Under the pieces are notes generated by a model. The model worked only from the letters and a program-made list of their open reading frames with translations. It made no database searches and was not told where the DNA came from. Shown one piece after another: positions 18,045-39,214 of a stretch of 64,000 nucleotides of DNA. Each line of letters begins with the position of its first letter. The first letter of the stretch is position 1. This DNA is from an uncultured Candidatus Saccharibacteria bacterium (lineage in GTDB: Bacteria > Patescibacteriota > Minisyncoccia > Phycocordibacterales > UBA9973): assembly GCA_964563615.1 (NCBI GenBank), contig CAZLWF010000003.1, forward strand, positions 3,237 to 67,236. Reading direction: 5' to 3'. Made by a program: the position numbers and the translations under genes.

Positions 18045-19394
18045 TTATTTAAACATACCGCGTATTTGTTCAAGTTCTTGGGATAGATTTGGATTTCTTT
18101 TTAAATCCTCCTTAATCTTTAAAAATGAATGGATGACGGTAGTATGATCTTTACCACCTAGTTTCTGTCCTATGAGGGGATATGAAACATTAAAATCCTC
18201 ACGGAGAATATACATAATCATTTGCCTTGCGTGTACGATCTCTTTGCGTCGTGTTTTTTCATATATTGAGGATTCATCGATATTGTAAAATGTGGAAATA
18301 ATGTGTACGACTTCATCAATAGAAACATTTTTCTTTGGTTTGATGTTATTTTTTATAAGTCCTTTAACCTCACTCATTGAAATATCCTTATTTTTCAATC
18401 TCGTTTGGCAAATAATAGCATTTAAACTCCCTTCAAGTTCTCGAATACTACCACTTATAACTGATGCAGTATATTCTAAAACCTCATCAGAAATTTCAAT
18501 TTTCTGCTCTTGTAGTTTTGTTCTTAGTATTGCAAGCCTTGATTCATAATCAGGCTCAGTAATATCTACTATCATGCCCGCAGAAAACCTAGATTTTAGT
18601 CGATCCTCGAGTCCAGGGATATAATTTGGATGTTTATCTGAAGAAAAGATTATTTGTCGGTTACTCTCATAGAAAGTATTAAATGTATGAAATAATTCTT
18701 CTTGTGTTTTCTCCATCTTCCCTACAAATTGGATATCATCAATGATAAGGACGTCATACTTCCTGTATTTTTCTTTAAAATTGTTTGCTTTATTTGTTTG
18801 GAAAGAATTAATCAAGTCCGTTGCAAACTTCTCGAGGGTAATATAATGCACTTTTTTCTCAGGATACTTTGTTTTTATAGCATTACCAACACCCTGGATC
18901 AGGTGGGTCTTTCCTAGTCCTGTTCCACCATAGATGAAAAATGGGTTATAACTAGCGCCAGGTTTGCTAACAATAGCCTGCGCCGCTGCAAATGCTAGTT
19001 CATTGAATGATCCAACAATAAAGCTTTCAAATATATAGCGCGGATTTAAATTATCCTCTTTATTGATATATAAATCTTGGAGAGGTAATTCTTTGTTAAT
19101 AAAAGATTTCTGCTCAGTACTAGTCTCCTCTTTTGGTTTAATATCATAGCGAGTAATAGTATATTCTACAGCTCTGACATTTTCTGAATACTGCATCAAT
19201 GTCTTCAGTATCAGCTTGTGGTATTTATTACAAAGCCAATCTTTAACAAATTCATTTGGTACACCAATACAAGCGGTGCCATTTTCTTGACGAGTAATCG
19301 TCGTATTTTTAAACCATGTACTATAGTTTGCCCGCGAAACTGCTTGCTCTATATCGCCTAAACATTGTTCCCAAAGTTGTTTTGTATCTTGCAT
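18045..19394 (-). CDS. dnaA: chromosomal replication initiator DnaA
   Basis: 449 aa. Walker A GGTGLGKTHL, Walker B VLIIDDIQF, and the C-terminal DNA-binding domain ...HARQMIMYILRE...GGKDHTTVIHS. Confidence 0.95.
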   Translation of the reverse strand: MQDTKQLWEQCLGDIEQAVSRANYSTWFKNTTITRQENGTACIGVPNEFVKDWLCNKYHKLILKTLMQYSENVRAVEYTITRYDIKPKEETSTEQKSFINKELPLQDLYINKEDNLNPRYIFESFIVGSFNELAFAAAQAIVSKPGASYNPFFIYGGTGLGKTHLIQGVGNAIKTKYPEKKVHYITLEKFATDLINSFQTNKANNFKEKYRKYDVLIIDDIQFVGKMEKTQEELFHTFNTFYESNRQIIFSSDKHPNYIPGLEDRLKSRFSAGMIVDITEPDYESRLAILRTKLQEQKIEISDEVLEYTASVISGSIRELEGSLNAIICQTRLKNKDISMSEVKGLIKNNIKPKKNVSIDEVVHIISTFYNIDESSIYEKTRRKEIVHARQMIMYILREDFNVSYPLIGQKLGGKDHTTVIHSFLKIKEDLKRNPNLSQELEQIRGMFK

Positions 19395-23086: not shown

Positions 23087-24523
23087 TTAGCCGTTGCTAA
23101 GGCAAGATTGGTAAATACCGTATGCATTTTGGCCATATGCGCTCGGTGATGTTGCGCTGCACATACTGTTGCCGCCATTGTAGGCTGAGAATGTTTTTGC
23201 GTAGTCACCCGTGCATCCAGGCAGGCCATTAAAGTATTTCCAGATTTTAGCACCTTCAGTCAAATTTTTTGTCATATCTAACATGTCAGCTGGGGTAAAA
23301 CCATCACGAGTTGGGTAGATATTCCTACTCTCCCATGATGGTGGATTTGTGGTGTAGGTTCCAGAATCATACCCATTTGGGAAAAAAGTAACTTGTACGA
23401 GACCTATGCCATTACTAAATCTCCAATCAAGTCCGAGTCCGGGGGTGTTGGTAATCTCATTTTTACTAACATCATTTTTTTTATTTGGATCACTTGCACC
23501 ATTAAAGGTTACTCCTTTGTATGTTTTACCTGAGCTTAAGAAAGCTTTGTTGGATTTTGTACCTTTTACATTTGCGTCCATACCTATTTGTCCTGCTTGC
23601 CCTCCTTTAGTCTCTACTTGCAAAAGTGCGTGTAATACACAATATGGAATGCCAGTGTTTGTGGCAACGGTATGTGCTGCCGCATCAATCGCACCTGGAA
23701 GTGGTACAGCATTGCCAGTAATTGATTGGTAGACGGTATCTGGAATGATAATATCTTCGACAGCAATGCTCTGGGTGCTAATACCAAGGTGTAAGCGAAC
23801 TAAGTTAGGATTAATAGTATTAAGTATGAGGAATGCAGCTAGTGCAAGTAGTAGTCCCCCAATAGCATGCCCAATCATACCTTTGGCGTCTTCTTTTTTA
23901 GTAAATGACTCACTGCCCATGTAGGTAATCCCACCGAGTACTATCATGACAACAGCAAGTACCCCCGCAAAACCTATAGTAAATTTGACCACAATATTGA
24001 GATAATCCCCTAGTCCGGTTGTAGGAGTGACTTTTACAATGTTTGGCAATGGTGCAAGTAGACAATATTCGCCAGCTCCCTCATCGCACTTGATCTCACC
24101 ATTTTGAGTTGGCGCTGCAGGCAAGTTAACATCTGCATCTTGTCCATTTACTGTTCCCTTTGAGGTATCAGGTGTTTTAAACTGGTTTAAATTACTGACT
24201 GGAGCTTGATTGCTCGCATTATATAATTCAAAGTAGTAGGTCGTATTTGGTAGTACACCATCAATTTTCCCAGTAAACGTATTATCACTCAATGGTGTAA
24301 TAGTTTGCCCGGTTTTATCAAGTGACGAGGTACTGGTGCCGTATTTAACCTGCATAACCAAGTTTTGATATTCAAATACTTCCCCATTAAAGCTAAATGA
24401 AGTTGGAGTTGCTTCTGTAATGCTGTAGATGATTACTTGCTGGTCCGCATAGAGCAATCCATGGGGCAGGATTATTACAGCAATGAGTGCGAAAAAAAAT
24501 ATAATTCGTTGTATTTTTTGCAT
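23087..24523 (-). CDS. secreted FN3-like / two-TM hairpin / lytic transglycosylase-like protein (VirB1/PrgK-like role)
   Basis: 478 aa with a signal peptide. Central hydrophobic pair VVKFTIGFAGVLAVVMIVLGGITYM and GHAIGGLLLALAAFLILNTI. The C-terminal region with LLQVETKGG ... GIGLVQVT resembles the SLT catalytic Glu and GLMQ motifs. Confidence 0.6.
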   Translation of the reverse strand: MQKIQRIIFFFALIAVIILPHGLLYADQQVIIYSITEATPTSFSFNGEVFEYQNLVMQVKYGTSTSSLDKTGQTITPLSDNTFTGKIDGVLPNTTYYFELYNASNQAPVSNLNQFKTPDTSKGTVNGQDADVNLPAAPTQNGEIKCDEGAGEYCLLAPLPNIVKVTPTTGLGDYLNIVVKFTIGFAGVLAVVMIVLGGITYMGSESFTKKEDAKGMIGHAIGGLLLALAAFLILNTINPNLVRLHLGISTQSIAVEDIIIPDTVYQSITGNAVPLPGAIDAAAHTVATNTGIPYCVLHALLQVETKGGQAGQIGMDANVKGTKSNKAFLSSGKTYKGVTFNGASDPNKKNDVSKNEITNTPGLGLDWRFSNGIGLVQVTFFPNGYDSGTYTTNPPSWESRNIYPTRDGFTPADMLDMTKNLTEGAKIWKYFNGLPGCTGDYAKTFSAYNGGNSMCSATSPSAYGQNAYGIYQSCLSNG

Positions 24524-24524
24524 A

Positions 24525-25499
24525 TTATTCTAAATTAACGATTACTGATTTTTCTGCTGATTGAAAGAGGCGTGAAATACTTGCAATCGATACAGCGATC
24601 GATGCGCTCCCTGCAATACCTTCGGGTTTTTTGATAACTAACCAGTTCTTTTTGCTTGGTGTTGATATATTCTGACCATTTAATTTCCAACTATATTTCA
24701 AATCACTACTTACTGGATCAAGTGGTGAGAAAAAGTATGGCTCTGCGACAATCGTTGCCTCGCTGCTTTCTAGGCTAAATATGCTGCCTAGCTCATGGTT
24801 GTATAATATGCCTTCGAGTGGATTATAAATATAAAAAAGAATCTGTGGTTTACCGGTTGTGAGCGTGATGGTCTGTGTTCCTGTTGCTCCAGAGCTTACG
24901 TCGGTTGCTTTGACGCTTATTTGCTCTTTGGCATTCAAGTAACTTGTTTGAAACAAAAAGCTATTTTTACTATAGCCAGAAAAATCTGGGTATGCGTTAA
25001 AATTTCTTTGCCAGGCAAACGTCATGCTCGTAGGGTTTGCAATAGTGCCAGCTTTTACTTGTGGCATTGCAACAACTTTGATTACTGACTGGGATGATGG
25101 CATCGCTTTGCCTTTATAAAATGGTGGTACATGCGAATCAACGGCTTGCCAAAGAAGATCGATCGAGGTTGGCACTATCAGAACACTTTTTGTTATTGAT
25201 GAGCCATCAACTGAAATGATTGCTTCAACGGTGACTGATGTTCCGACACTGTCAGTTTTTACTTGATAGCTTATTGCTCCCGTTTTATTGAGTCCAATTT
25301 TGCCATTTACCTTCCAGGTAATGTCTGCGCGGCTTAAATCAATAGCAAAACTAGTTAATTTTATGGTGACAATTTGATCAGGCCCTGGAATTTCTGGCAC
25401 TGTCGATACACTGACATCGCTTTGTACTAGTTCTGCGTATGCGACAATAGTTAATCCGAAATATATCGAAATAATGAGGAGGATAAAAGCTTTTTTCAT
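24525..25499 (-). CDS. secreted hypothetical protein (324 aa)
   Basis: Signal peptide MKKAFILLIISIYFGLTIVAYA followed by beta-rich sequence. There is 1 nt between its start and the stop of the upstream... downstream neighbour is separated by a single base, so it is tightly packed in the operon. Confidence 0.7.
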   Translation of the reverse strand: MKKAFILLIISIYFGLTIVAYAELVQSDVSVSTVPEIPGPDQIVTIKLTSFAIDLSRADITWKVNGKIGLNKTGAISYQVKTDSVGTSVTVEAIISVDGSSITKSVLIVPTSIDLLWQAVDSHVPPFYKGKAMPSSQSVIKVVAMPQVKAGTIANPTSMTFAWQRNFNAYPDFSGYSKNSFLFQTSYLNAKEQISVKATDVSSGATGTQTITLTTGKPQILFYIYNPLEGILYNHELGSIFSLESSEATIVAEPYFFSPLDPVSSDLKYSWKLNGQNISTPSKKNWLVIKKPEGIAGSASIAVSIASISRLFQSAEKSVIVNLE

Positions 25500-25564: not shown

Positions 25565-27400
25565 TTACGCACTACCCTTTTCGCTTGCCTCTAGTTCTTT
25601 TTTTGCTTTTTGTATGGCGAGAACTTGCGAAGGATCAGAGGTAATAATCTGATCTTCGGTATATGAAGCAATCGTCTTAATCGCTACGTGTTTGAGTCCT
25701 GCAAAGAATATGCCTTCGCCAACACCAGATTCGAGGAGTAGGTATTTCTCTTCGTCTGTTAGGTTAAACGTTTTTTGTAGTAAATCGATCGATGATGGGG
25801 ACTGTTTCAAAAGAAATTGGATTGAAGAGTTCGTTACAATTGGTATACCGTAGGGACTTTTCATAAAGTCTGCAACGTCTTGGGTAATCGTAGCAAGTCC
25901 GAGATAGTATTTGCGGCCACGTTTTGCAATCGAGTAAAGAAACGATGCTGTATCTTCTGATTTCATCATCCACCAGGCTTCGTCAACAACCAGAAGGCGT
26001 TTCCTTAAGTTTTTACGGACAGAGTTCCATATATAGTGGGTCACAATATACATAGCAACAGGTTTGAGCTCGTCTTCCATATCACGAACAGAAAAGACAA
26101 CAAATTTCTTGTTGATGTCTACATTTGATGGTTTATTGATAAATCCTGCCCATGAACCGCGGGTATACTTGGTGAGCTTTTGAATGATTGACTCAGTTCC
26201 CTCCATGCCAGAGAGCACCATTTCAAAATCAGACATGAGCGGTGGCTCAATGTTTGAGAAATCAGAATTTGGAGTGATATCTTTGATGCCGTACGTTTCA
26301 GTGATCGCTCGGTCAATAATAGAATCTTCTTCAGGAGTGAGACCACCGAGCATGATGCGGAATAGTCCAACTAAGTTGATCGTATTTGACCTTAATACAT
26401 CAGCTGCTGTCTCGTCATCGTGTGGAATCGGCAAATCAAAAGGATTGATATGGTGATCAGATGATAGTGAAATATTAAAGTATCGTCCTCCGACTGCTTC
26501 AGCTAGGTATTCATACTCGCGCTCCGGATCGATAACGATTACTTCCGTATCAAACATAAGCGTACGAATGATTTCGAGCTTGGTTGCATATGATTTACCA
26601 GAACCTGATTTGGCAAAGGTAATCGAATTGTAGTTTTCGAGAGAAAACCGGTCAAAGATAACTAAGCTTGAATTGTGGCGGTTAATACCATAGAGAATGC
26701 CTTTGTCTGAGGTTAAATCAAAAGAAACAAAGGGAAAAATTGAAGATAGAGGCTCAGAATTAAGCTTCTGGTGCACATTCAAAAGATCGGTGCCAATCGG
26801 TATAACACTCTTGAAGCCTTCTTCTTGCTGGAAAAGTGCTGGTTTCAAATACACGAGCTTAGCATCGAGTATTGATTTGATTTCATTTTCAATTTTAAAA
26901 AGCTCATTTTCATTGTCGGCATACATAGTGAGGTACAGTCCAACATCAAACATTTTCTCCTGTGCTTGTTGTAGATTGTCACGGAGCGTTTCAATATCGC
27001 GATAGGCAGTATCGAGCATTGGGTCGCGCACCAAGCCGCGCGATTCGCGCATGTTGATCTGACTCTGTACCTCGGCAACTTTCTTTTGAAATTGTCTCAG
27101 AATGGTTGCGGTATCAATCGGATGGATGAAAATCGAAACATCAAAAATCTTATCGAGGTTGATAATCGGTGCAAACCAATTGTCAGTCAAATATCTCGGA
27201 TACGAAATCACGAAGAAAGTTCGTGCAATCTTGTCCCCTAGGTGCAATGCTTTGGGTTCAACTTGGAGTGCCGATGGTGCAATAACATCCTGCAGTTCAA
27301 GAGTTGCGGCTTCGTATATTTCCTGGGGTAAAACAGGCAACACTTGCTTGTCGCTCCCGCTTCCTTTTTTTGATTTTCCTAAAAGTCCAAAAAGTGCCAT
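25565..27400 (-). CDS. virB4: VirB4/TraC-like type IV secretion ATPase, C-terminal two thirds
   Basis: 611 aa. Walker A FAKSGSGKSYATK, Walker B RLLVVDEAWWMM, and the middle-domain pattern ARTFFVISYPRYL typical of Gram-positive-type VirB4 (PrgJ/TcpF-like). Confidence 0.85.
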   Translation of the reverse strand: MALFGLLGKSKKGSGSDKQVLPVLPQEIYEAATLELQDVIAPSALQVEPKALHLGDKIARTFFVISYPRYLTDNWFAPIINLDKIFDVSIFIHPIDTATILRQFQKKVAEVQSQINMRESRGLVRDPMLDTAYRDIETLRDNLQQAQEKMFDVGLYLTMYADNENELFKIENEIKSILDAKLVYLKPALFQQEEGFKSVIPIGTDLLNVHQKLNSEPLSSIFPFVSFDLTSDKGILYGINRHNSSLVIFDRFSLENYNSITFAKSGSGKSYATKLEIIRTLMFDTEVIVIDPEREYEYLAEAVGGRYFNISLSSDHHINPFDLPIPHDDETAADVLRSNTINLVGLFRIMLGGLTPEEDSIIDRAITETYGIKDITPNSDFSNIEPPLMSDFEMVLSGMEGTESIIQKLTKYTRGSWAGFINKPSNVDINKKFVVFSVRDMEDELKPVAMYIVTHYIWNSVRKNLRKRLLVVDEAWWMMKSEDTASFLYSIAKRGRKYYLGLATITQDVADFMKSPYGIPIVTNSSIQFLLKQSPSSIDLLQKTFNLTDEEKYLLLESGVGEGIFFAGLKHVAIKTIASYTEDQIITSDPSQVLAIQKAKKELEASEKGSA

Positions 27401-27403
27401 ATA

Positions 27404-28045
27404 TTATTCTAATTTAATATTTTGCTCTGTCTCGCCTGGATTAAATATCTTATAAAAAAGCTCAATGATTTCTTCAGTGCCAAGCTGAGTGCTTCGAATA
27501 CCGCATCGGTTAAGTCCTTGCTGGATGACAGTAATACGCTCTTCGAGTTGTGACCGTTTTTCTTCAAAAGCCGCTAATGCATCTTCTTTGGCTTCTTTTG
27601 ATGATTTATTGAAGCCAGTGAACATTTGGGTAATGCCGCCAGTATTACCTATGGTAGTTGCCGAATACGGGATAACGATAAAGAAATTCTTCGTCATGAT
27701 GTTTACCTGCTCGGTAAAGCTTTTGATGAATTCAATGTATTCTTTGGTCTGTACTTTGAGAAGTGGCTCTAACTGCTCCTTCATTCTGTTTTCAAGAGTT
27801 ACGAGATACGGCTGAATATTTAACCGGCGTGATTGGATAATAATCTGAGTTGAAAATTCAATCGAATTCAAGAAATTTTGAAATTGCAGAAGAATCGCAT
27901 GTTGTTCATCAGCTGACTTGAGCGACAGATTGATCGATGAAGCTATAACAACAGCTCGTAAGCCGCCATCTTTAAGTACGATGATGCCGTCGCGAACTTC
28001 TTTGATTGGCACAAACCCTTGGGTGGCCTTCGCATTGATTGCCAT
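27404..28045 (-). CDS. VirB4 N-terminal domain encoded as a separate ORF
   Basis: FVPIKEVRDGIIVLKDGGLRAVVIASSINLSLKSADEQHAILLQFQNFLN matches the N-terminal domain pattern of Gram-positive VirB4 homologues. It ends in TAA, in frame with the ATPase ORF, which starts 3 nt later. Confidence 0.7.
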   Translation of the reverse strand: MAINAKATQGFVPIKEVRDGIIVLKDGGLRAVVIASSINLSLKSADEQHAILLQFQNFLNSIEFSTQIIIQSRRLNIQPYLVTLENRMKEQLEPLLKVQTKEYIEFIKSFTEQVNIMTKNFFIVIPYSATTIGNTGGITQMFTGFNKSSKEAKEDALAAFEEKRSQLEERITVIQQGLNRCGIRSTQLGTEEIIELFYKIFNPGETEQNIKLE

Positions 28046-28081
28046 ATAGGGACAGTATACCATCCCTGAGCATGGTTATTG

Positions 28082-28483
28082 TTATTTTTTGTTGATATCA
28101 AGCACATCCAAGCTCCAAGAAATCTCTTTGAGCTTGCTGCCGGAGAGTCGTGGGATAACTGAGGCTGGCAATTCAGTGTCTTTTTTCTCGACAATTTTCT
28201 TTTTAGGTTCGCGTTTCCAAATGTAGAGCTTTGACTGGAAAAAATATCGTAAACTATTTTCAAGTACGAATATAAATGGCTTATTATTTACTTTATAGAA
28301 TGCAAGCGCGAGGGCAAGTCCCCCAATCGGTGCAATAAAAAGTACAGCAAAGAAAAAAGGCAGTAATCTATATGCAATAAAGCAAAGTCCTGCTCCACCT
28401 GCGAGGTAGACGAATTGTTTGAAGGTAAATGGTCCGAATATCTTGTCTTCAATGTCAATAAATTGTGGAACTTGGAATCGCAT
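28082..28483 (-). CDS. PrgI-family (VirB3-like) two-TM protein
   Basis: MRFQVPQFIDIEDKIFGPFTFKQFVYLAGGAGLCFIAY... then a second TM. This is the classic PrgI-family N-terminus, in the expected position directly upstream of VirB4. The start is moved to M17 of the track ORF. Confidence 0.7.
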   Translation of the reverse strand: MRFQVPQFIDIEDKIFGPFTFKQFVYLAGGAGLCFIAYRLLPFFFAVLFIAPIGGLALALAFYKVNNKPFIFVLENSLRYFFQSKLYIWKREPKKKIVEKKDTELPASVIPRLSGSKLKEISWSLDVLDINKK

Positions 28484-28490
28484 GTATGTA

Positions 28491-29357
28491 TTATATAGCT
28501 TCTCGATATAAATCTTTTTGTTTATCTGCACTACCTGTCACTTGAGGTAATGTGTAATTGCTTTCTTGTTTTGGAATCTTAAATGTCGTCTGTAATTTTT
28601 GAGCGACAACATTACCTTGAGGTGCTGGAGCTTGTGTTGGAGTAGGTGTTGATGGTGCAGTAGATTCTGGTTGATTTTTAGGCATGCCGACAAATTGCTG
28701 TGGCACTGGCATGTCTTGGAGTTTTACTGTAGGTGGGATGATTTTTGGTGTTTGGACAGCACTTGCTATGCCAACATTAGCAGGCTTTTGTATTTGTAGA
28801 TGAGGCATCGATGTGTCGTTTCTGGTTGGATTCTCGAGTGACTTTATGAGAGCATCTCGGGTTAACGCTTGAGCGTCTGTAGTATCTAATGCATCACTAA
28901 TAGTGGTCTCTCTCGGTTTGATGAGTTCGATCTTTGCATCCTTTAGAATATTTATGGTGTTTTTCTCTTGAGTTGGACTGTTGAGATCAACAGAAATTAT
29001 TTCATCCTTATGGATTACTGGAGTATCTTCTGATGAAAGTGTTTGACCTTCAATCATTCTCTGTCGCAAGGCACCAAAAATAAGTTCATTAACGTTATCT
29101 ATAAATTTTTGGCTATCCTCTCTCTCAAGCCCTAATTCGTCTATGACCATTGCTGAAAATGCGTCAGCACTTATAAGTCCAACTATAAACATAGTCACTG
29201 AATTGATAAATATACCAGCTTTGTCCGTATGTAGTTTATATTTTTCAATCAAGAAATGCTCTCGATCGTCAATATCAAGTTCAAGCATTGCAGTGGTTAC
29301 TTCAGGTGGTAATACATTGAAAGCACTATCGATTTCTTCAGGGGTAAATGTCCTCAT
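28491..29357 (-). CDS. hypothetical protein with one hydrophobic segment and a Pro/Gln/Thr-rich C-terminal half
   Basis: 288 aa. GIFINSVTMFIVGLISADAFSAMV. C-terminal PQQFVGMPKNQPESTAPSTPTPTQAPAPQ. Confidence 0.65.
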   Translation of the reverse strand: MRTFTPEEIDSAFNVLPPEVTTAMLELDIDDREHFLIEKYKLHTDKAGIFINSVTMFIVGLISADAFSAMVIDELGLEREDSQKFIDNVNELIFGALRQRMIEGQTLSSEDTPVIHKDEIISVDLNSPTQEKNTINILKDAKIELIKPRETTISDALDTTDAQALTRDALIKSLENPTRNDTSMPHLQIQKPANVGIASAVQTPKIIPPTVKLQDMPVPQQFVGMPKNQPESTAPSTPTPTQAPAPQGNVVAQKLQTTFKIPKQESNYTLPQVTGSADKQKDLYREAI

Positions 29358-29876: not shown

Positions 29877-32800
29877 CTAAGGGGTTCCTGGTGGTGGATT
29901 AGCCGGAGGATTGTTCGGTGGTGGAGTATTGCCAGATGGAGGAGGGTTATTAGGTGGGTTTGGTGGAGGTGGAGGCGGTGTGTTATTTGGTGGAGGTGGT
30001 GTCACGATGGGAGGAGTTCCTGGTGGTATATTTGGCGGAATGGTGGTGGTACCGCCTTGTTGCGGACTAGCTGTTCCCCCGCCTCCACTATTTGCTAGGC
30101 CCTGAATGGCTGCTAGAATAGCCTGGTTTGTAGCTACGATCTGTTGGTTAGAGTTTAATGTTGCCTGGTTGACTTGTTGTTGATTCGTTGGGTCAGTTGT
30201 AGCAGGGCCACGAATATCATTTGCTGTTCTTTCGTTGTAAATATCAACCGGTCCTCTTTGGATGGCACTAATATCGGTTTGTGCTTGGCCAATAGTTGTA
30301 AGTGTAGCATTAACTGCATTTTGAGCTTGAGTAACTACTTGAGTTTGATTTTGTACGGCAGGGTCATTTGCAGGAAGAGTTCGTCTTAATGTAGTCAGTC
30401 TAGCTTGTTCTGCCTGGAGTGCGGCATTTTGTCCAGCTAATGCTTGCTGTGCAGTGGTTAATTGTTGATTGAGTACTCCAAGTTGTGGTGCTTGAGTTGC
30501 TCGGTTTGCAGCTGCACCTAGGCGATTGATAATGTAGTCAAGTCCAGCTCCTTGTTCGGTAACATTTGCTGCGCCTTGTCGGCGTTGGTTATTTCTTGCA
30601 GTAATTGCAGCGGTTGCAGTTGCTGATGCTTGTCTTGCTCCATCAATTTGTGTTTGACTGACTCTGTTTCCTGTTCTTGGGTCAACATTTCCCACGCCAA
30701 TTCCTCCAAGTCTACGTTCTTCGTTTTGTAATTGTGTAGCACGAGCTTGCTCTCTTGGTCCTGCTCTAAGTGAGTCAGCGTATGCTTTATCTTTTGCAGC
30801 TTGAGCTGATTTGTCTTTAATAAATCCACCAGATTTGACAGCTCCAACTTTCCAACCAGTTTCAGAAGCAAAACTTTTACCCGCAACAGATATGTTCCGA
30901 GCATCATAGGAAGCATTACTTGCTGCAACGCTCGTGTTAAGTGCTCTCCTTGCCAAGAATCCCCGAACCCCAGTTTCAGAAGCTGCATCTTTAAGTGCTC
31001 CACTTTCAGCAAGTCGTGCTGCTCCCGCTCCAATTACTCTGCGACCTGCATATGCTACCCCGCCTGTTGCAACACCAACTGCGGCTCCGCCAACTTTGTT
31101 CATAACAGATAATGATGCGGCGCCAATATCACCGGATAGCTTTACAGCCATATCAACCGCTGTTTTTATCAAGAAATATATAATCGCAAACGGTATGATG
31201 AGGCCGATAAGCCCTTGGATGTTACTCTCGAGGCTACCGCCAGTTGGACTGTTACTTGCTGCGATTGGTAATAGCTTAAGATCAGTCGCCATAATAATGA
31301 TGTAGAGGAAAAAGAGGAATACTGGCGCCATGAATGCTTGCGCTACTAGCTCGCTCCACCAATTAGTCCAGCCAATTTTCATCCAGCTTTTCATCGACGG
31401 TACAATCCATGATACGAAGGCAAAAGGTGAAAGTATCATCGATACCATCAGTCCTATGACGCGGCCGAGAAACAGTACAGCAACCTTGAGAAACATGAGG
31501 AACATGAATATATTGATTGCAATAGCAATGAGGAGCACAAAGAAGAACCAGCCAGTATTTTCATTGGCATCAATGTCACTCGTCTTGAATATTTTTTGTG
31601 GATTGAATTTAGAAACAAGTCCAAGGGTGATGCTCTTCTCACCGCTAGTTGACGCAGAGCTTTGCCCTGTCACACTTACTGAGTCATACATGATCCGAGC
31701 AAGGATGTTTGAGGTGTCGATAATGATTTTAGTAAAAAAGAGACTGAAGTTGATAAGGAGTGCCACGACGACAAGCGAGGCAATCATTTTTTTGGCATCG
31801 ACGCCATTGAGTCTCAAAATAGTACCGATAGCGATATACAGGAGTACGAATATGAAAAGAATATTTGAAATATCACGAACGATGCGCCAGCCTTGGGGCA
31901 CAAATTCTGTTGCAGTGTAGCTTGAGCTTTGCAAAGAAAAGTGTAAGAACCAATCGAGGAACCCAGCAGCAAGTCTCGCAAGTGCAGCAGTTGGAATGTA
32001 TAAGACGTAATATACAAGCTGAGTAAAACAACCGAGCATGTTGATTGCTGCCCTACCAGATGTCAGACTGAAATCTAAACAATATGGCAAGTTGCCAGGA
32101 TTGCCTGTATCTGTTGAGCCTTCGACAGTATTTTGACCTGCTGTTGGATTTGTCGTTACCTCAGGAGAGCCAGCTGGTAATGTTTTAAAGGATGCAATTT
32201 TCTCTTCGTCGTCACTAAGTGCGCTTAGAGTGTCATTGCTGAGTTCGCCCACACAATTACGAATTAGTGGGATAACCGAACAAGTTTCTTCGAGTCTCCC
32301 TTGGCTCACATATGGAGTATTTGGCTTTAAACCTGTAACAGTAATATTGATTGTTTGGGTACCAAGAAAAAGGTCTGGAATAACAACAATGCTCTGTCCA
32401 GTATTTTGATCGAAGGCAATTCCTGGAATAGGTTTGCCTGCGCGATCTAAAATTTTGCCGTTGATGACTTCTTCATCAGAAGGTGTTGTTGCTTCCTTTT
32501 TAGCTATGGTGCTCAAGTTGTCGGTACTTGTAGCGATATCTAAATAGACGCCGCAGCCATACCCATTACATTCGAGTGGATCATAGGATCCTAGTGCCCC
32601 ACCATTGCCTGGGATTTCTTCATTGCCTTGAGACGAATTGGATTGTCCAGAAAGTACTTCGTAAATAGGATTGCCGTCTTGCCCTTCGATGTATGTCCAC
32701 CCAGTAATTCCATTGGTGCTTCCGTTAGGAGCAATTCTTCCTTTATAAATATCATGACCAATATTGCCATCATTACCGCCATTAACTTGTAAATGGAATT

Positions 32801-32957
32801 GAAGTACTGCAGTTGTTGCTCCGATACTTATGACCTTAACCTCAGGTATATTAAAATTATCATCCAAATAAGCTTCAGCTTTGTGCGAGGTAAAAATCGG
32901 CAAAAAGCTTCCTGACAGGATAGTGATGAAGAGCACATAGAGCAGGAATTTTTTCAT
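29877..32957 (-). CDS. VirB6/TrbL-like polytopic membrane protein with a large N-terminal exodomain and a Gln/Ala-rich + polyproline C-terminal tail
   Basis: 1026 aa. Signal peptide, ~300-aa extracytoplasmic region, at least 6 hydrophobic helices (residues ~320-620), then repetitive Q/A/N-rich sequence ending TPPIVTPPPPNNTPPPPPPNPPNNPPPSGNTPPPNNPPANPPPGTP. Confidence 0.7.
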   Translation of the reverse strand: MKKFLLYVLFITILSGSFLPIFTSHKAEAYLDDNFNIPEVKVISIGATTAVLQFHLQVNGGNDGNIGHDIYKGRIAPNGSTNGITGWTYIEGQDGNPIYEVLSGQSNSSQGNEEIPGNGGALGSYDPLECNGYGCGVYLDIATSTDNLSTIAKKEATTPSDEEVINGKILDRAGKPIPGIAFDQNTGQSIVVIPDLFLGTQTINITVTGLKPNTPYVSQGRLEETCSVIPLIRNCVGELSNDTLSALSDDEEKIASFKTLPAGSPEVTTNPTAGQNTVEGSTDTGNPGNLPYCLDFSLTSGRAAINMLGCFTQLVYYVLYIPTAALARLAAGFLDWFLHFSLQSSSYTATEFVPQGWRIVRDISNILFIFVLLYIAIGTILRLNGVDAKKMIASLVVVALLINFSLFFTKIIIDTSNILARIMYDSVSVTGQSSASTSGEKSITLGLVSKFNPQKIFKTSDIDANENTGWFFFVLLIAIAINIFMFLMFLKVAVLFLGRVIGLMVSMILSPFAFVSWIVPSMKSWMKIGWTNWWSELVAQAFMAPVFLFFLYIIIMATDLKLLPIAASNSPTGGSLESNIQGLIGLIIPFAIIYFLIKTAVDMAVKLSGDIGAASLSVMNKVGGAAVGVATGGVAYAGRRVIGAGAARLAESGALKDAASETGVRGFLARRALNTSVAASNASYDARNISVAGKSFASETGWKVGAVKSGGFIKDKSAQAAKDKAYADSLRAGPREQARATQLQNEERRLGGIGVGNVDPRTGNRVSQTQIDGARQASATATAAITARNNQRRQGAANVTEQGAGLDYIINRLGAAANRATQAPQLGVLNQQLTTAQQALAGQNAALQAEQARLTTLRRTLPANDPAVQNQTQVVTQAQNAVNATLTTIGQAQTDISAIQRGPVDIYNERTANDIRGPATTDPTNQQQVNQATLNSNQQIVATNQAILAAIQGLANSGGGGTASPQQGGTTTIPPNIPPGTPPIVTPPPPNNTPPPPPPNPPNNPPPSGNTPPPNNPPANPPPGTP

Positions 32958-36347: not shown

Positions 36348-37154
36348 CTAAAGAGTTTTGCAGTAGCTTTTTGCAATACGAAACCAGGTTTCTAAATCTA
36401 TGTCCTCTGCACGTATTTGTTCTGATAAAGTTTCTGCTTGCCAAATATGGGTCAGTGCATCATATGGCATAGGTAATGATGTGAGATTTCTGATGAGTAC
36501 TTTGCGTTTATGAGCAAACCCTGTGCGAAGGACATTGAAAAAATGTTTTTCTGATACAGCATACTTTGTAAAAAGGGTTTTAGATATTTTTTCAATGGAA
36601 AGTATGGCTGAGTCGACGCGAGGTGGAGGCGTAAAACTGCCGCGCCCTACCTTGGCTATGATCTTTGGATTGCCGTAGGCCTTCACTGCGATTGAGAGTA
36701 TGCTTTCTTTGTTGTCTTTAGCAATAATTCTCTCGGCGACTTCTTTTTGCACCAAGAGAACCATCTGTTCTGGTATACAAGAAGCACTCAAGATATGTTT
36801 TACTATTGCGCCAGTGATATTGTATGGAATATTAGCAATGACTTTGTAAGTAAGATCATGATAAAAGGCAAATACACCTGGATCAAAATCGAGAATATCT
36901 TTTTCAATAAGCTCAAGCTTACCGCTCGCAATTTCTTTTGCAAATGTAGTCGAAAGTTCTTTGACTAATGCACGATCTTTTTCGATTGCGACCACTTTGC
37001 CAGCAAAGAAAAGTAATTTTTTGGTAAGTACACCGTGCCCGGGTCCAATTTCAAGAATAATATCAGTCGGCTGTATATCCCCACTTTCTATGATAGTGTC
37101 GAGTGCATGTTGGTTATGGAGAAAGTGTTGTCCTAAAGATTTTTTGGCAAGCAT
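36348..37154 (-). CDS. rsmA: 16S rRNA (adenine1518/1519-N6)-dimethyltransferase
   Basis: MLAKKSLGQHFLHNQHALDTII, SAM motif ILEIGPGHGVLT, NIPYNIT. The start is set at 37154, because the track ORF extension to 37460 overlaps pcrA. Confidence 0.9.
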   Translation of the reverse strand: MLAKKSLGQHFLHNQHALDTIIESGDIQPTDIILEIGPGHGVLTKKLLFFAGKVVAIEKDRALVKELSTTFAKEIASGKLELIEKDILDFDPGVFAFYHDLTYKVIANIPYNITGAIVKHILSASCIPEQMVLLVQKEVAERIIAKDNKESILSIAVKAYGNPKIIAKVGRGSFTPPPRVDSAILSIEKISKTLFTKYAVSEKHFFNVLRTGFAHKRKVLIRNLTSLPMPYDALTHIWQAETLSEQIRAEDIDLETWFRIAKSYCKTL

Positions 37155-37155
37155 G

Positions 37156-39066
37156 TTATTCAAAGTATAATATTTTTTCACTGTGACCTCTCGGTTGGTA
37201 AAGTTCCTGCTCAACAAGCTCTGGTGGAATGTCATAAATAAATTCTGAAGGTATATTGATTTGGCGCATGCCAAATATAGTTCTCGTTTCTGCATAGGAG
37301 AGATAAAGAAATTCCTTAGCTCGGGTGACAGCGACATAAAACAATCTGCGCTCTTCTTCGGCATCTTCGATTGTCTTACTATCGAGTCTGGCATGAGGGA
37401 AAAGATCTTGCTCCAGGCCAACAATAAAGACAACTTTAAATTCCAGACCCTTCGCCGCATGAACAGTCATGAGTCTAACTCCGCCCCTGTCTTCTTCTAG
37501 ATTATCTTGATCGCTCGCGAGTGCCGCATCAGTTAAAAGCTTATCCATGCCTTCATCAATCCCCCACGCGTCATATTTGGTCGCAAGTGTTACGAGTTCC
37601 TCTAAGTTCATGAGTCGGTCTTCATCATCTGCACCTCCAGCTCGTAATGTCTCATCGATCTTGGCTTCATGAAGAATATATTTAAATACTTCTGATGGCA
37701 GCATAGTTTTTTTACATTCGTTGATACGATCGAGTAGTTCATAGAATGCATTGATTTTTACTTGCATAGGCTTTGGCAATGCTTCTAGCTCTCCAGCAAA
37801 TAATTTTACCAATGTCACTTTGCCAATGCCACGTGTTGGGAAATTGATGATGCGTTTGATGTCAGATAGCGAATTGCGATTGTGTGCTGCTCTCACATAA
37901 GCGAGCATGTCTTTGATTTCTTTACGCTCAAAGAATTTCGTTCCAACAACTTGATATGGAATATTGGCACCAAGCATGGCTTCCTCGAGTACGCGTGATT
38001 GGAAGTTGGCTCGATATAAAACGGCAATATCCTTTGGAGCTGTTCCCTCTCGAATAAAGTTGTCTGCTGTATCAGCGACGAACCCAGCTTCATCATTCTC
38101 GCCAAAGGCAGTGTAGAGCTTGATACTATCGCCGTCTTTACCGGTATGGAGGAGAAGTTTTGGTATTCGTACGGTATTTTTTTTGATAATAGCGTTGGCC
38201 GCATCGAGGATAACTTTTGTCGATCGGTAATTATGTTCAAGAAAGACAATCTTGGCTTCTGGATAGTCCTTTTCAAATCGGAGCATATTTTTCATATTGG
38301 CACCCCGCCAGCTATAAATGTTTTGGTCCATATCACCCACGACGCAGATATGATGGTCACTGCCGACCAATAGCTTAGCGAGCTCATATTGCACGGTATT
38401 GGTGTCTTGGTATTCGTCGATATGGATGTAGCGCCAGCGCGACTGATATTCATCACGTATGGTTTGGTTGCGAAGTGCGATAAGTGCATAGAGCAAGAGA
38501 TCATCGAAATCAACCGAACCCTCCTTCTTTTTCTTCTCTTCATATTTCTGCCAAACGCTGTTAATAAGCTCCTCACTATAGTTTGAAGCTTTAGTGGCAA
38601 ATTGTTCTTGGGTCTCGCCTTCACCCTTGGCCTTTGATATAACATATCGGAATTTGCGAGGTTCTTGGGCTTTAGGATCAAGGCCGAGCTCTTTGATGGA
38701 TTCTTTGATGAGGGATATCGTATCTCCGTCATCTAAAATAGTAAAATACCTTGTTAGATTAAAAAGTTTGGCATGTTCGCGCAGGATAGTCGCTGCCAAT
38801 GCATGAAATGTTGCCACAAATGGCACTTCAGTTATACCTTTTGGCAGTACACTTATCACACGTTCACGCATTTCTTTGGCTGCTTTGTTCGTGAAAGTAA
38901 TAGCAAGAATCTGATTCGGAAGTACACCTTCCTTGATAAGGTGTACAATGCGGTGTGTAATTGTTTTTGTTTTACCTGCACCAGCACCGGCCACAATGAG
39001 AAGTGGTCCATGTATAGAAAGTGCGGCTTCTTTTTGCTTTTCATTGAGTCCATCGAGATATTCCAT
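37156..39066 (-). CDS. pcrA: UvrD/PcrA-family ATP-dependent DNA helicase
   Basis: LNEKQKEAALSIHGPLLIVAGAGAGKTKTITHRI, IHIDEYQDTN, YRS, VHAAKGLEF, RRLFYVAVTRAK. The start is set at MEYLDGLN, because the upstream extension overlaps repeat copy C. Confidence 0.9.
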   Translation of the reverse strand: MEYLDGLNEKQKEAALSIHGPLLIVAGAGAGKTKTITHRIVHLIKEGVLPNQILAITFTNKAAKEMRERVISVLPKGITEVPFVATFHALAATILREHAKLFNLTRYFTILDDGDTISLIKESIKELGLDPKAQEPRKFRYVISKAKGEGETQEQFATKASNYSEELINSVWQKYEEKKKKEGSVDFDDLLLYALIALRNQTIRDEYQSRWRYIHIDEYQDTNTVQYELAKLLVGSDHHICVVGDMDQNIYSWRGANMKNMLRFEKDYPEAKIVFLEHNYRSTKVILDAANAIIKKNTVRIPKLLLHTGKDGDSIKLYTAFGENDEAGFVADTADNFIREGTAPKDIAVLYRANFQSRVLEEAMLGANIPYQVVGTKFFERKEIKDMLAYVRAAHNRNSLSDIKRIINFPTRGIGKVTLVKLFAGELEALPKPMQVKINAFYELLDRINECKKTMLPSEVFKYILHEAKIDETLRAGGADDEDRLMNLEELVTLATKYDAWGIDEGMDKLLTDAALASDQDNLEEDRGGVRLMTVHAAKGLEFKVVFIVGLEQDLFPHARLDSKTIEDAEEERRLFYVAVTRAKEFLYLSYAETRTIFGMRQINIPSEFIYDIPPELVEQELYQPRGHSEKILYFE

Positions 39067-39114
39067 CTGATTACTATAGCATGACGTAGAATTCCTCTTT
39101 CCTTTGTGTTTTTT

Positions 39115-39214
39115 AAGAAAGTTTGGAAGAATATTTTTCTTGTTGCGGAACTCATCCAATTAAAATTGGATTCAAACAGTCCTCACTGCAAAAAATATTT
39201 CCCCAAACTTTCTT
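39115..39214 (+). repeat. intergenic bulged-hairpin repeat, copy C (archetype)
   Basis: Outer stems aagaaagtttgg/ccaaactttctt (12 bp) and aatattttt/aaaaatatt (9 bp) enclose TTGCGGAACTC-[ATCCAATT aaa AATTGGAT]-TCAAACAGTCCTCACTGC. Confidence 0.75.

Follow-up and report, generated by a model that had tools for sequence, protein, structure and literature searches.

The window analysed here is a 64,000-nucleotide stretch of contig CAZLWF010000003.1 (assembly GCA_964563615.1), and it carries on its minus strand two adjacent open reading frames (ORFs), ORF A and ORF B, that correspond to two parts of VirB4, the ATPase of type IV secretion systems (T4SSs). We consider it highly probable (about 0.9) that A and B are two separate, co-transcribed genes that jointly supply one VirB4 ATPase, and that the locus is a conserved two-gene VirB4 of a chromosomal, monoderm-type (MPF-FATA-derived) T4SS in a Patescibacterium of the Paceibacteria/Nomurabacteria type. 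As judged from profile matches, A would represent the first ~200 residues of the VirB4 N-terminal domain as a stand-alone protein, and B would represent the remainder. This two-gene arrangement is already known as TrsD plus VirB4, both from pGO1-type plasmids and across Patescibacteria, and the window holds a typical instance of it. The features on which the argument depends are as follows.

27404 to 28063 (TAA stop included), minus strand: ORF A, 219 amino acids (aa) as listed; TrsD-like protein with a precomputed 'TraC-like' (PF26593) label, the putative detached VirB4 N-terminal sub-domain.
25565 to 27400, minus strand: ORF B, 611 aa; VirB4 core, comprising the second part of the N-terminal domain and the RecA-like ATPase domain.
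27398 to 27406, minus strand: A/B junction, with TAA at 27404-27406, TAT at 27401-27403 and the ORF B start ATG at 27398-27400; the spacer is 3 nucleotides (nt).
28082 to 28531, minus strand: PrgI-family (VirB3-like) small membrane protein, directly upstream of ORF A.

The minus-strand junction reads ...AAT ATT AAA TTA GAA TAA TAT ATG GCA CTT TTT..., and in this genome the two ORFs lie in the same frame with only TAA and TAT between them. The original prediction of a VirB4 in two same-frame ORFs parted by TAA-TAT-ATG thus stands in both its coordinates and its reading. A scan for promoters and terminators between A and B returned nothing above the shuffle background. The upstream gene matches PF12666 (PrgI) with E = 1.5e-9 and 38.7 bits, above the cut-off of 27, and its product is likely the membrane anchor for the VirB4 N-terminal part. 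The same order, PrgI followed by A and B, is seen again in three other loci (L081, L085, and L086) and as trsC-trsD-trsE in pGO1.

By its sequence, ORF B is a VirB4/TraC-type T4SS ATPase. It contains the PF19044 P-loop_TraG domain (2e-24) and AAA_10, and its residues 232-587 match the C-terminal domain of Thermoanaerobacter VirB4 (4AG5) at 7e-38, while residues 258-562 match positions 446-741 of TrwK at 9e-7. On the NCBIfam model NF045971 (VirB4-like, CD1110 family), ORF B scores 380.6 bits, passing the cut-off of 325, and covers positions 183-734 of 752, leaving the N-terminal ~180 positions of the profile outside B. On NF045975 (VirB4_plasma), it covers profile positions 288-892. Both nucleotide-binding motifs are intact in the translation, with Walker A read as AKSGSGKS (...FAKSGSGKSYATK...) and Walker B as LLVVDEAW (...RLLVVDEAWWM...). 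The corresponding Walker A residues Gly460, Gly462, Lys463, and Ser464 and Walker B residues Asp667 and Glu668 are invariant in an alignment of fused VirB4 forms, which are described below.

ORF A is covered by two VirB4 profiles. Residues 12-217 match positions 102-285 of 894 in NF045975 (E = 5e-13), and residues 22-135 match positions 9-123 of 752 in NF045971 (E = 1.6e-5). In addition, residues 19-131 match positions 20-142 of 201 in NF041427, the TrsD model, with E = 3.6e-7. Precomputed annotation places PF26593, 'TraC-like', on the exact ORF A protein and on the fused forms; our local Pfam scans of ORF A, run at default settings and with E up to 10, gave no useful match and no PF26593, and a phmmer search against PDB sequences gave chance matches only. 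An AlphaFold2 model of ORF A was obtained with a predicted local distance difference test (pLDDT) score of 73. In Foldseek, the 14 best PDB matches of this model were all TrwK/VirB4 chains of the R388 T4SS, with modest statistics (probability 0.85-1.0, E of 4e-3 to 8e-2, and template modelling (TM) scores of 0.32-0.43). The assignment of A to the VirB4 N terminus by two VirB4 profiles, and of B to the middle and ATPase domains by PF19044, 4AG5, and CD1110, agrees with what had been proposed from the ORF translations.

Homologues of ORF A are abundant, and a homologue search recovered 7,924 of them. All of the best 120 are stand-alone, have a length of 211-235 aa, and come from metagenome-assembled genomes (MAGs) of Nomurabacteria, Paceibacterota, and Parcubacteria. 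In a 41-sequence alignment, 71 of the 219 residues of ORF A are invariant. The homologues align only from residue 7 (MAINAK..., consensus MALNAKATQ), and the 90% cluster of ORF A includes a 213-aa protein annotated by NCBI in Candidatus Nomurabacteria (QQR50595.1). Because of this alignment boundary and the annotated 213-aa member, translation of ORF A probably begins at the ATG at 28045, which would give a protein of 213 aa. We also observed C-terminal extensions of 100-230 aa in ~35 further stand-alone A-type proteins from other lineages, as well as in P0216 (443 aa) and P0196 (406 aa). In these last two, the sequences that were read, the extensions are of low complexity and rich in Pro, Gln, Ala, and Glu.

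Placed on the same profiles, A and B are complementary. They abut without overlap on NF045975, at positions 102-285 and 288-892, and they occupy separate parts of the CD1110 profile, at 9-123 and 183-734. Together they comprise 830 aa, which is a normal size for VirB4 (TrwK has 823 aa) and bears out the earlier estimate that the joined length is that of an ordinary VirB4.

We then compared the junction among related genomes. Eighty loci were fetched from distinct species, 79 of which retain downstream DNA and enter the junction counts. In all 79, the ATPase half lies directly after A as a separate ORF, and both order and adjacency are invariant. Counted from the stop of A, B begins in frame 0 in 16 loci, in frame +1 in 36, and in frame +2 in 27. 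Gaps between A and B span -8 to 442 nt (median 6). A terminates mostly with TAA (63 loci), less often with TAG (14) or TGA (2). Of the 16 in-frame loci, seven contain at least two in-frame stops within the gap, such as TAG TGA in L016, and one locus (L030) has the same TAA TAT ATG junction as the window. Chance alone would put one third of the related loci in frame, and no more than 16 of 79 are, so the shared frame of A and B in this genome is coincidental. The description of a single in-frame TAA was therefore accurate as to the codon, which is present as reported, but misleading in its emphasis on the frame. Identity to the window proteins across these loci is 59-74% for A and 75-93% for B, with A evolving faster than B. 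Moreover, two independent Logan assemblies (SRR12487045 and SRR23702519) contain the 219-aa protein unchanged, together with an 80-nt junction identical to that of the window. The comparison shows both genes to be under purifying selection, and the split itself appears to be old and held by selection throughout the clade, at a variable linker between sub-domains.

The length of the ATPase ORF also varied in this set. Compared with the usual 600-620 aa, one was double-length (L075, 1266 aa, from 4647), several had C-terminal extensions of 60-110 aa, and one was shortened to 286 aa (L012); the other off-length ORFs measured 723 aa in L055, 694 aa in L070, 682 aa in both L007 and L049, and 678 aa in L030.

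A search of the ORF A profile against 1.8 billion cluster representatives returned 3,024 matches, a count that is no measure of abundance because the library is clustered at 50% identity. Among the best 150 matches, nearly all were stand-alone proteins of 116-443 aa, and one, P0232, had 797 aa. The gene for P0232 follows a PrgI gene and lies near R3H, yidC, rnpA, dnaA, and dnaN. Searching with P0232 revealed numerous intact fused forms of ~775-807 aa, containing both PF26593 and P-loop_TraG, many of which are labelled Candidatus Colwellbacteria. The fused forms share the gene surroundings of the split ones, with PrgI and rnpA/yidC/dnaA. The window proteins are colinear with P0232, in which residues 1-214 correspond to A7-214 (38% identity) and residues 230-796 correspond to B36-601 (56% identity), and the A/B break falls in a variable linker of ~15 residues. 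P0232 was modelled with AlphaFold2 from an alignment with 55 fused homologues (pLDDT 71), and the model matches TrwK/VirB4 over ~870 alignment columns with E = 8.5e-27 and a TM score of 0.58.

The ATPase part was placed in a neighbour-joining (NJ) tree that included 73 split and 118 fused sequences and used pGO1 TrsE as the root. The split and fused groups come out reciprocally monophyletic and are 50-61% identical to each other. Therefore, one fission or fusion event is enough to account for the sampled sets. In an NJ tree of the A domain, the fused forms lie inside the stand-alone diversity, a placement that is weak given the short domain, the distant outgroup, and the method, and that hints that the fused form could be a secondary re-fusion. 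Two ATPase proteins of ~600 aa (P0294 and P0390), with 77-88% identity to the fused clade, were considered as independent recent fissions and rejected as artefacts, since a 100-N scaffold gap lies inside the A region of each locus, as listed here.

L082, 1213 to 1667, and L083, 1171 to 2052: 100-N-gap artefact loci of the ATPase genes P0294 and P0390, Colwellbacteria-type clade.

Within the P0232 model, the secondary-structure order of residues 29-207 (strand, helix, strand, two helices, strand, helix, strand, helix) recurs in residues 251-393, which suggests a tandem-repeat N-terminal domain in the predicted structure. When profiles were compared with hhalign for a duplication of the A fold in the first part of B, the probability was 0.8%, giving no sequence support.

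The split ATPases also share a feature of their own. Residues 1-35 of ORF B form a tail that is specific to the split clade, is conserved over the same region in L001-L039, and is without counterpart in the fused homologues. It begins with the motif M-x-[ILF]-[FL]-[DN]-K-L-[FL]-G-K-K (MxxFDKLFGKK), continues through a variable Lys/Ser-rich linker, and ends in a conserved VLPVLPEEIYESA segment, given as VLPVLPEEIYESAxLEL for L001-L039 and the window. Judging from its sequence, this tail may be a docking or membrane-associating peptide, and it could help to dock A to B and so compensate for the lost covalent link.

Among known systems, the locus can be compared with the pGO1 subclass of MPF-FATA T4SSs. 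In pGO1, the tightly packed genes trsC (VirB3-like, 135 aa), trsD (227 aa), and trsE (672 aa) follow the same order as PrgI, A, and B, and the pair of A and B resembles TrsD/TraD plus TrsE/TraE of the Staphylococcus plasmids pGO1 and pSK41. TrsE begins at an equivalent position of the VirB4 profile (265, against 288 for B), and B and TrsE align from residue ~25 of each with E = 1e-32. The pGO1 system differs in belonging to a conjugative plasmid and in having a relaxase and a coupling protein; the window locus, by contrast, is chromosomal and origin-proximal. Full-length VirB4/TraC proteins, including TrwK of R388 (PDB 7O41 and 8RTD), the CD1110 family, the VirB4 of a Mycoplasma integrative and conjugative element, and the fused Colwellbacteria-type forms, share with A plus B a similar total length, colinear domains, and Walker A and B motifs. 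Unlike in these proteins, the first ~200 residues are a separate polypeptide here.

The closest parallel is the Patescibacterial T4SS described by Quinonero-Coronel et al. (2025, Microb Genom; PMC12102498), from which the locus shows no substantive difference. There, TrsD is reported to be remotely homologous to the VirB4 N terminus, a statement that we cite from this article, and to outnumber every other T4SS component across 3,035 Patescibacteria genomes, with 2,272 homologues, 1,664 of them associated with virB4. A TrsD homologue is also listed as essential in Ca. Southlakia epibionticum ML1, on the basis of transposon sequencing cited there (Wang et al. 2023 Cell), and the T4SS is said to lie usually near dnaA, dnaN, ksgA, and rnpA. 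That transposon sequencing is the only source for a requirement in epibiotic growth. Likewise, the window has a small homologue of the VirB4 N terminus directly upstream of virB4 with PrgI/VirB3 before it, and the locus is chromosomal, lies near dnaA and ksgA, and belongs with MAGs of Paceibacteria/Nomurabacteria. Text searches of the article located 'split' nowhere, and 'fused' or 'fusion' only where VirB3-VirB4 fusions are said to be unseen; the article thus appears to describe neither virB4 as a split gene nor the ~790-aa fused lineage. A full-text literature search for 'split VirB4' returned no papers, and the main text of Guglielmini 2014 (PMC4027160) makes no mention of TrsD.

Mechanistically, the products of A and B would assemble non-covalently into a VirB4-like protomer, in which A would be placed with the PrgI/VirB3 membrane anchor on one side and the ATPase on the other. 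A stop-to-start spacing of 3 nt would provide translational coupling and near-equal amounts of the two proteins. Several observations weigh against this reading of A and B as one two-gene VirB4 with a TrsD-type first subunit. The case for A assembling with B draws on homology and on the fused 'Rosetta-stone' forms. The score of ORF A on the TrsD model is 30.2 bits and does not reach the cut-off of 200, and hhalign of the ORF A profile against pGO1 TrsD was not significant (probability 2.4%). A is at most a candidate orthologue of TrsD, and the A/B split and the pGO1 split could be independent. We therefore use TrsD-like for position and for homology class (the VirB4 N terminus), as the profile scores indicate, and not for membership of the narrow NF041427 TrsD subfamily. 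The models are moderate (pLDDT 73 for A and 71 for P0232), and the Foldseek E-values for A alone are weak. Furthermore, no Shine-Dalgarno-like motif was found upstream of ORF B, and such a motif lies within 20 nt upstream of the ATPase start in only 4 of the 79 loci. The leaders upstream of the ATPase start in these loci are strongly A-rich (49% A), and the sequences suggest Shine-Dalgarno-independent or coupled initiation in this clade.

Among the explanations that the original prediction had set side by side, a natural two-subunit VirB4 is the one that the comparison strongly favours, as the split is present in 79 of 79 loci and A and B are complementary on the VirB4 profile. The prediction had made no choice among them and had not identified the arrangement as the known TrsD plus VirB4. 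The prediction had also proposed comparing fused and split forms at orthologous loci, and that comparison yielded only split loci among the 79, with fused forms in a Colwellbacteria-type sister lineage. If a once fused virB4 had lately acquired a nonsense mutation and now re-initiated at the neighbouring ATG, as an incipient pseudogene or a fresh fission, this would explain why the halves lie in frame with only TAA TAT between them, and fused forms of ~790 aa do exist in the sister lineage. Such a recent nonsense mutation is nevertheless very improbable and is rejected, because the split persists in all of these loci down to 59% identity in A, with 80% out of frame and gaps of up to 442 nt, because split and fused ATPase parts at 50-61% identity are reciprocally monophyletic in the NJ tree, and because the N-terminal tail of B is conserved within the split clade and peculiar to it. 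Decayed, frameshifted orthologues, which had been named as the sign of a pseudogene, are contradicted by the conservation of both halves in 79 loci. The common frame and the one stop would also suit programmed readthrough, or reassignment of TAA, producing a single polypeptide of ~831 aa. We give this explanation scarcely any credence, given that 63 of 79 orthologous junctions are out of frame, that 7 of the 16 in-frame junctions have at least two in-frame stops, and that TAA is the usual terminator of A in relatives (63 of 79). ARAGORN found no tRNA gene, suppressor or other, and no tmRNA gene in the 64-kb window, a result that says little about the rest of the genome. The junctions are conserved, mostly out of frame, and variable in gap, a pattern that neither a recent nonsense mutation nor readthrough nor decay can accommodate.

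That an assembly or sequencing error made the stop is a negligible prospect. Apart from the origin of the window in a metagenome-assembled contig, no specific point favours it, and the 80-nt junction is identical in the Logan assemblies of two different runs, in addition to the split being universal in relatives. There is a small chance that ORF A is instead an independent accessory T4SS protein, for example a paralogue, regulator, or adaptor, that merely resembles the VirB4 N terminus, with B as a self-sufficient, N-terminally short VirB4. This would agree with the treatment of TrsD, in PMC12102498, as a separate component without an assigned function, with the faster evolution of A than of B, and with the many stand-alone A-type proteins of 300-440 aa whose long, low-complexity C-terminal extensions hint at extra roles. 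On the other hand, A and B fit side by side and without overlap on full-length VirB4 profiles, where each fills a part that the other leaves out, and B lacks exactly the segment that A supplies. Natural fused forms also join the halves at the same point, and adjacency and order are invariant.

With A and B read as one two-gene VirB4, the locus should be annotated as two intact genes, a TrsD-like VirB4 N-terminal subunit and a VirB4 ATPase core. Labels such as pseudogene, readthrough candidate, or assembly error should be avoided, and the fact that the two ORFs share a frame is no reason to merge them. The locus adds one more case to the origin-proximal T4SS found widely among Patescibacteria, a system reported essential in the one strain tested. 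The coexisting fused and split lineages act as a natural 'Rosetta stone' that points to TrsD-like proteins being a VirB4 sub-domain, and the fused/split pair could guide structural work on the inner-membrane complexes of monoderm T4SSs. This is a modest addition to published knowledge, and what interest remains attaches to the contrast between fused and split Patescibacterial lineages and to the conserved ATPase tail. As a speculation that we regard as rather unlikely, Patescibacteria may have switched between a fused VirB4 N-terminal sub-domain (Colwellbacteria-type, ~790 aa) and a free one (Nomurabacteria-type and many others), the free form being accompanied by a docking tail on the ATPase (MxxFDKLFGKK...VLPVLPEEIYESA) and, in some lineages, by long disordered extensions of the small subunit. 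The free form would then go beyond a neutral fission, and an essential host-contact T4SS could thereby be assembled in a regulated or sub-stoichiometric way.

Two further genes in the window provide its chromosomal context.

18045 to 19394, minus strand: dnaA (Bac_DnaA 5e-66, DnaA_N, Bac_DnaA_C), context only.
36348 to 37460, minus strand: KsgA-type methyltransferase (RrnaAD) ORF, 370 aa as listed.

The dnaA gene marks an origin-proximal chromosomal site, as is typical for the T4SSs of Patescibacteria. Upstream of the PrgI gene lies an ORF of 1026 aa (29877-32957, minus strand) with no Pfam match, which has an N-terminal signal-like segment, a hydrophobic block in the middle, a Gln/Ala/Asn-rich region, and a C-terminal Pro/Asn-rich tail (..PPPPPPNPPNNPPPSGNTPPPNNPPANPPPGTP); from this composition, it could be a VirB6-like or surface T4SS component. 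Just downstream of the ATPase gene are two minus-strand ORFs, 24525-25499 (324 aa) and 23087-24523 (478 aa). The 324-aa ORF had no matches in the domain scan. The 478-aa ORF had weak, sub-threshold matches to a fibronectin-like N-domain and to T4SS_pilin (for the latter, E = 0.0046 and 17.4 bits against a cut-off of 26.6) around a hydrophobic stretch, and both ORFs may encode pilin-like or surface components. Finally, the KsgA-type ORF matches the RrnaAD profile from residue 105 onward only and overlaps the 3' end of a UvrD-type helicase ORF (37156-39159, minus strand) by ~300 nt; this methyltransferase probably starts at a later codon than listed.

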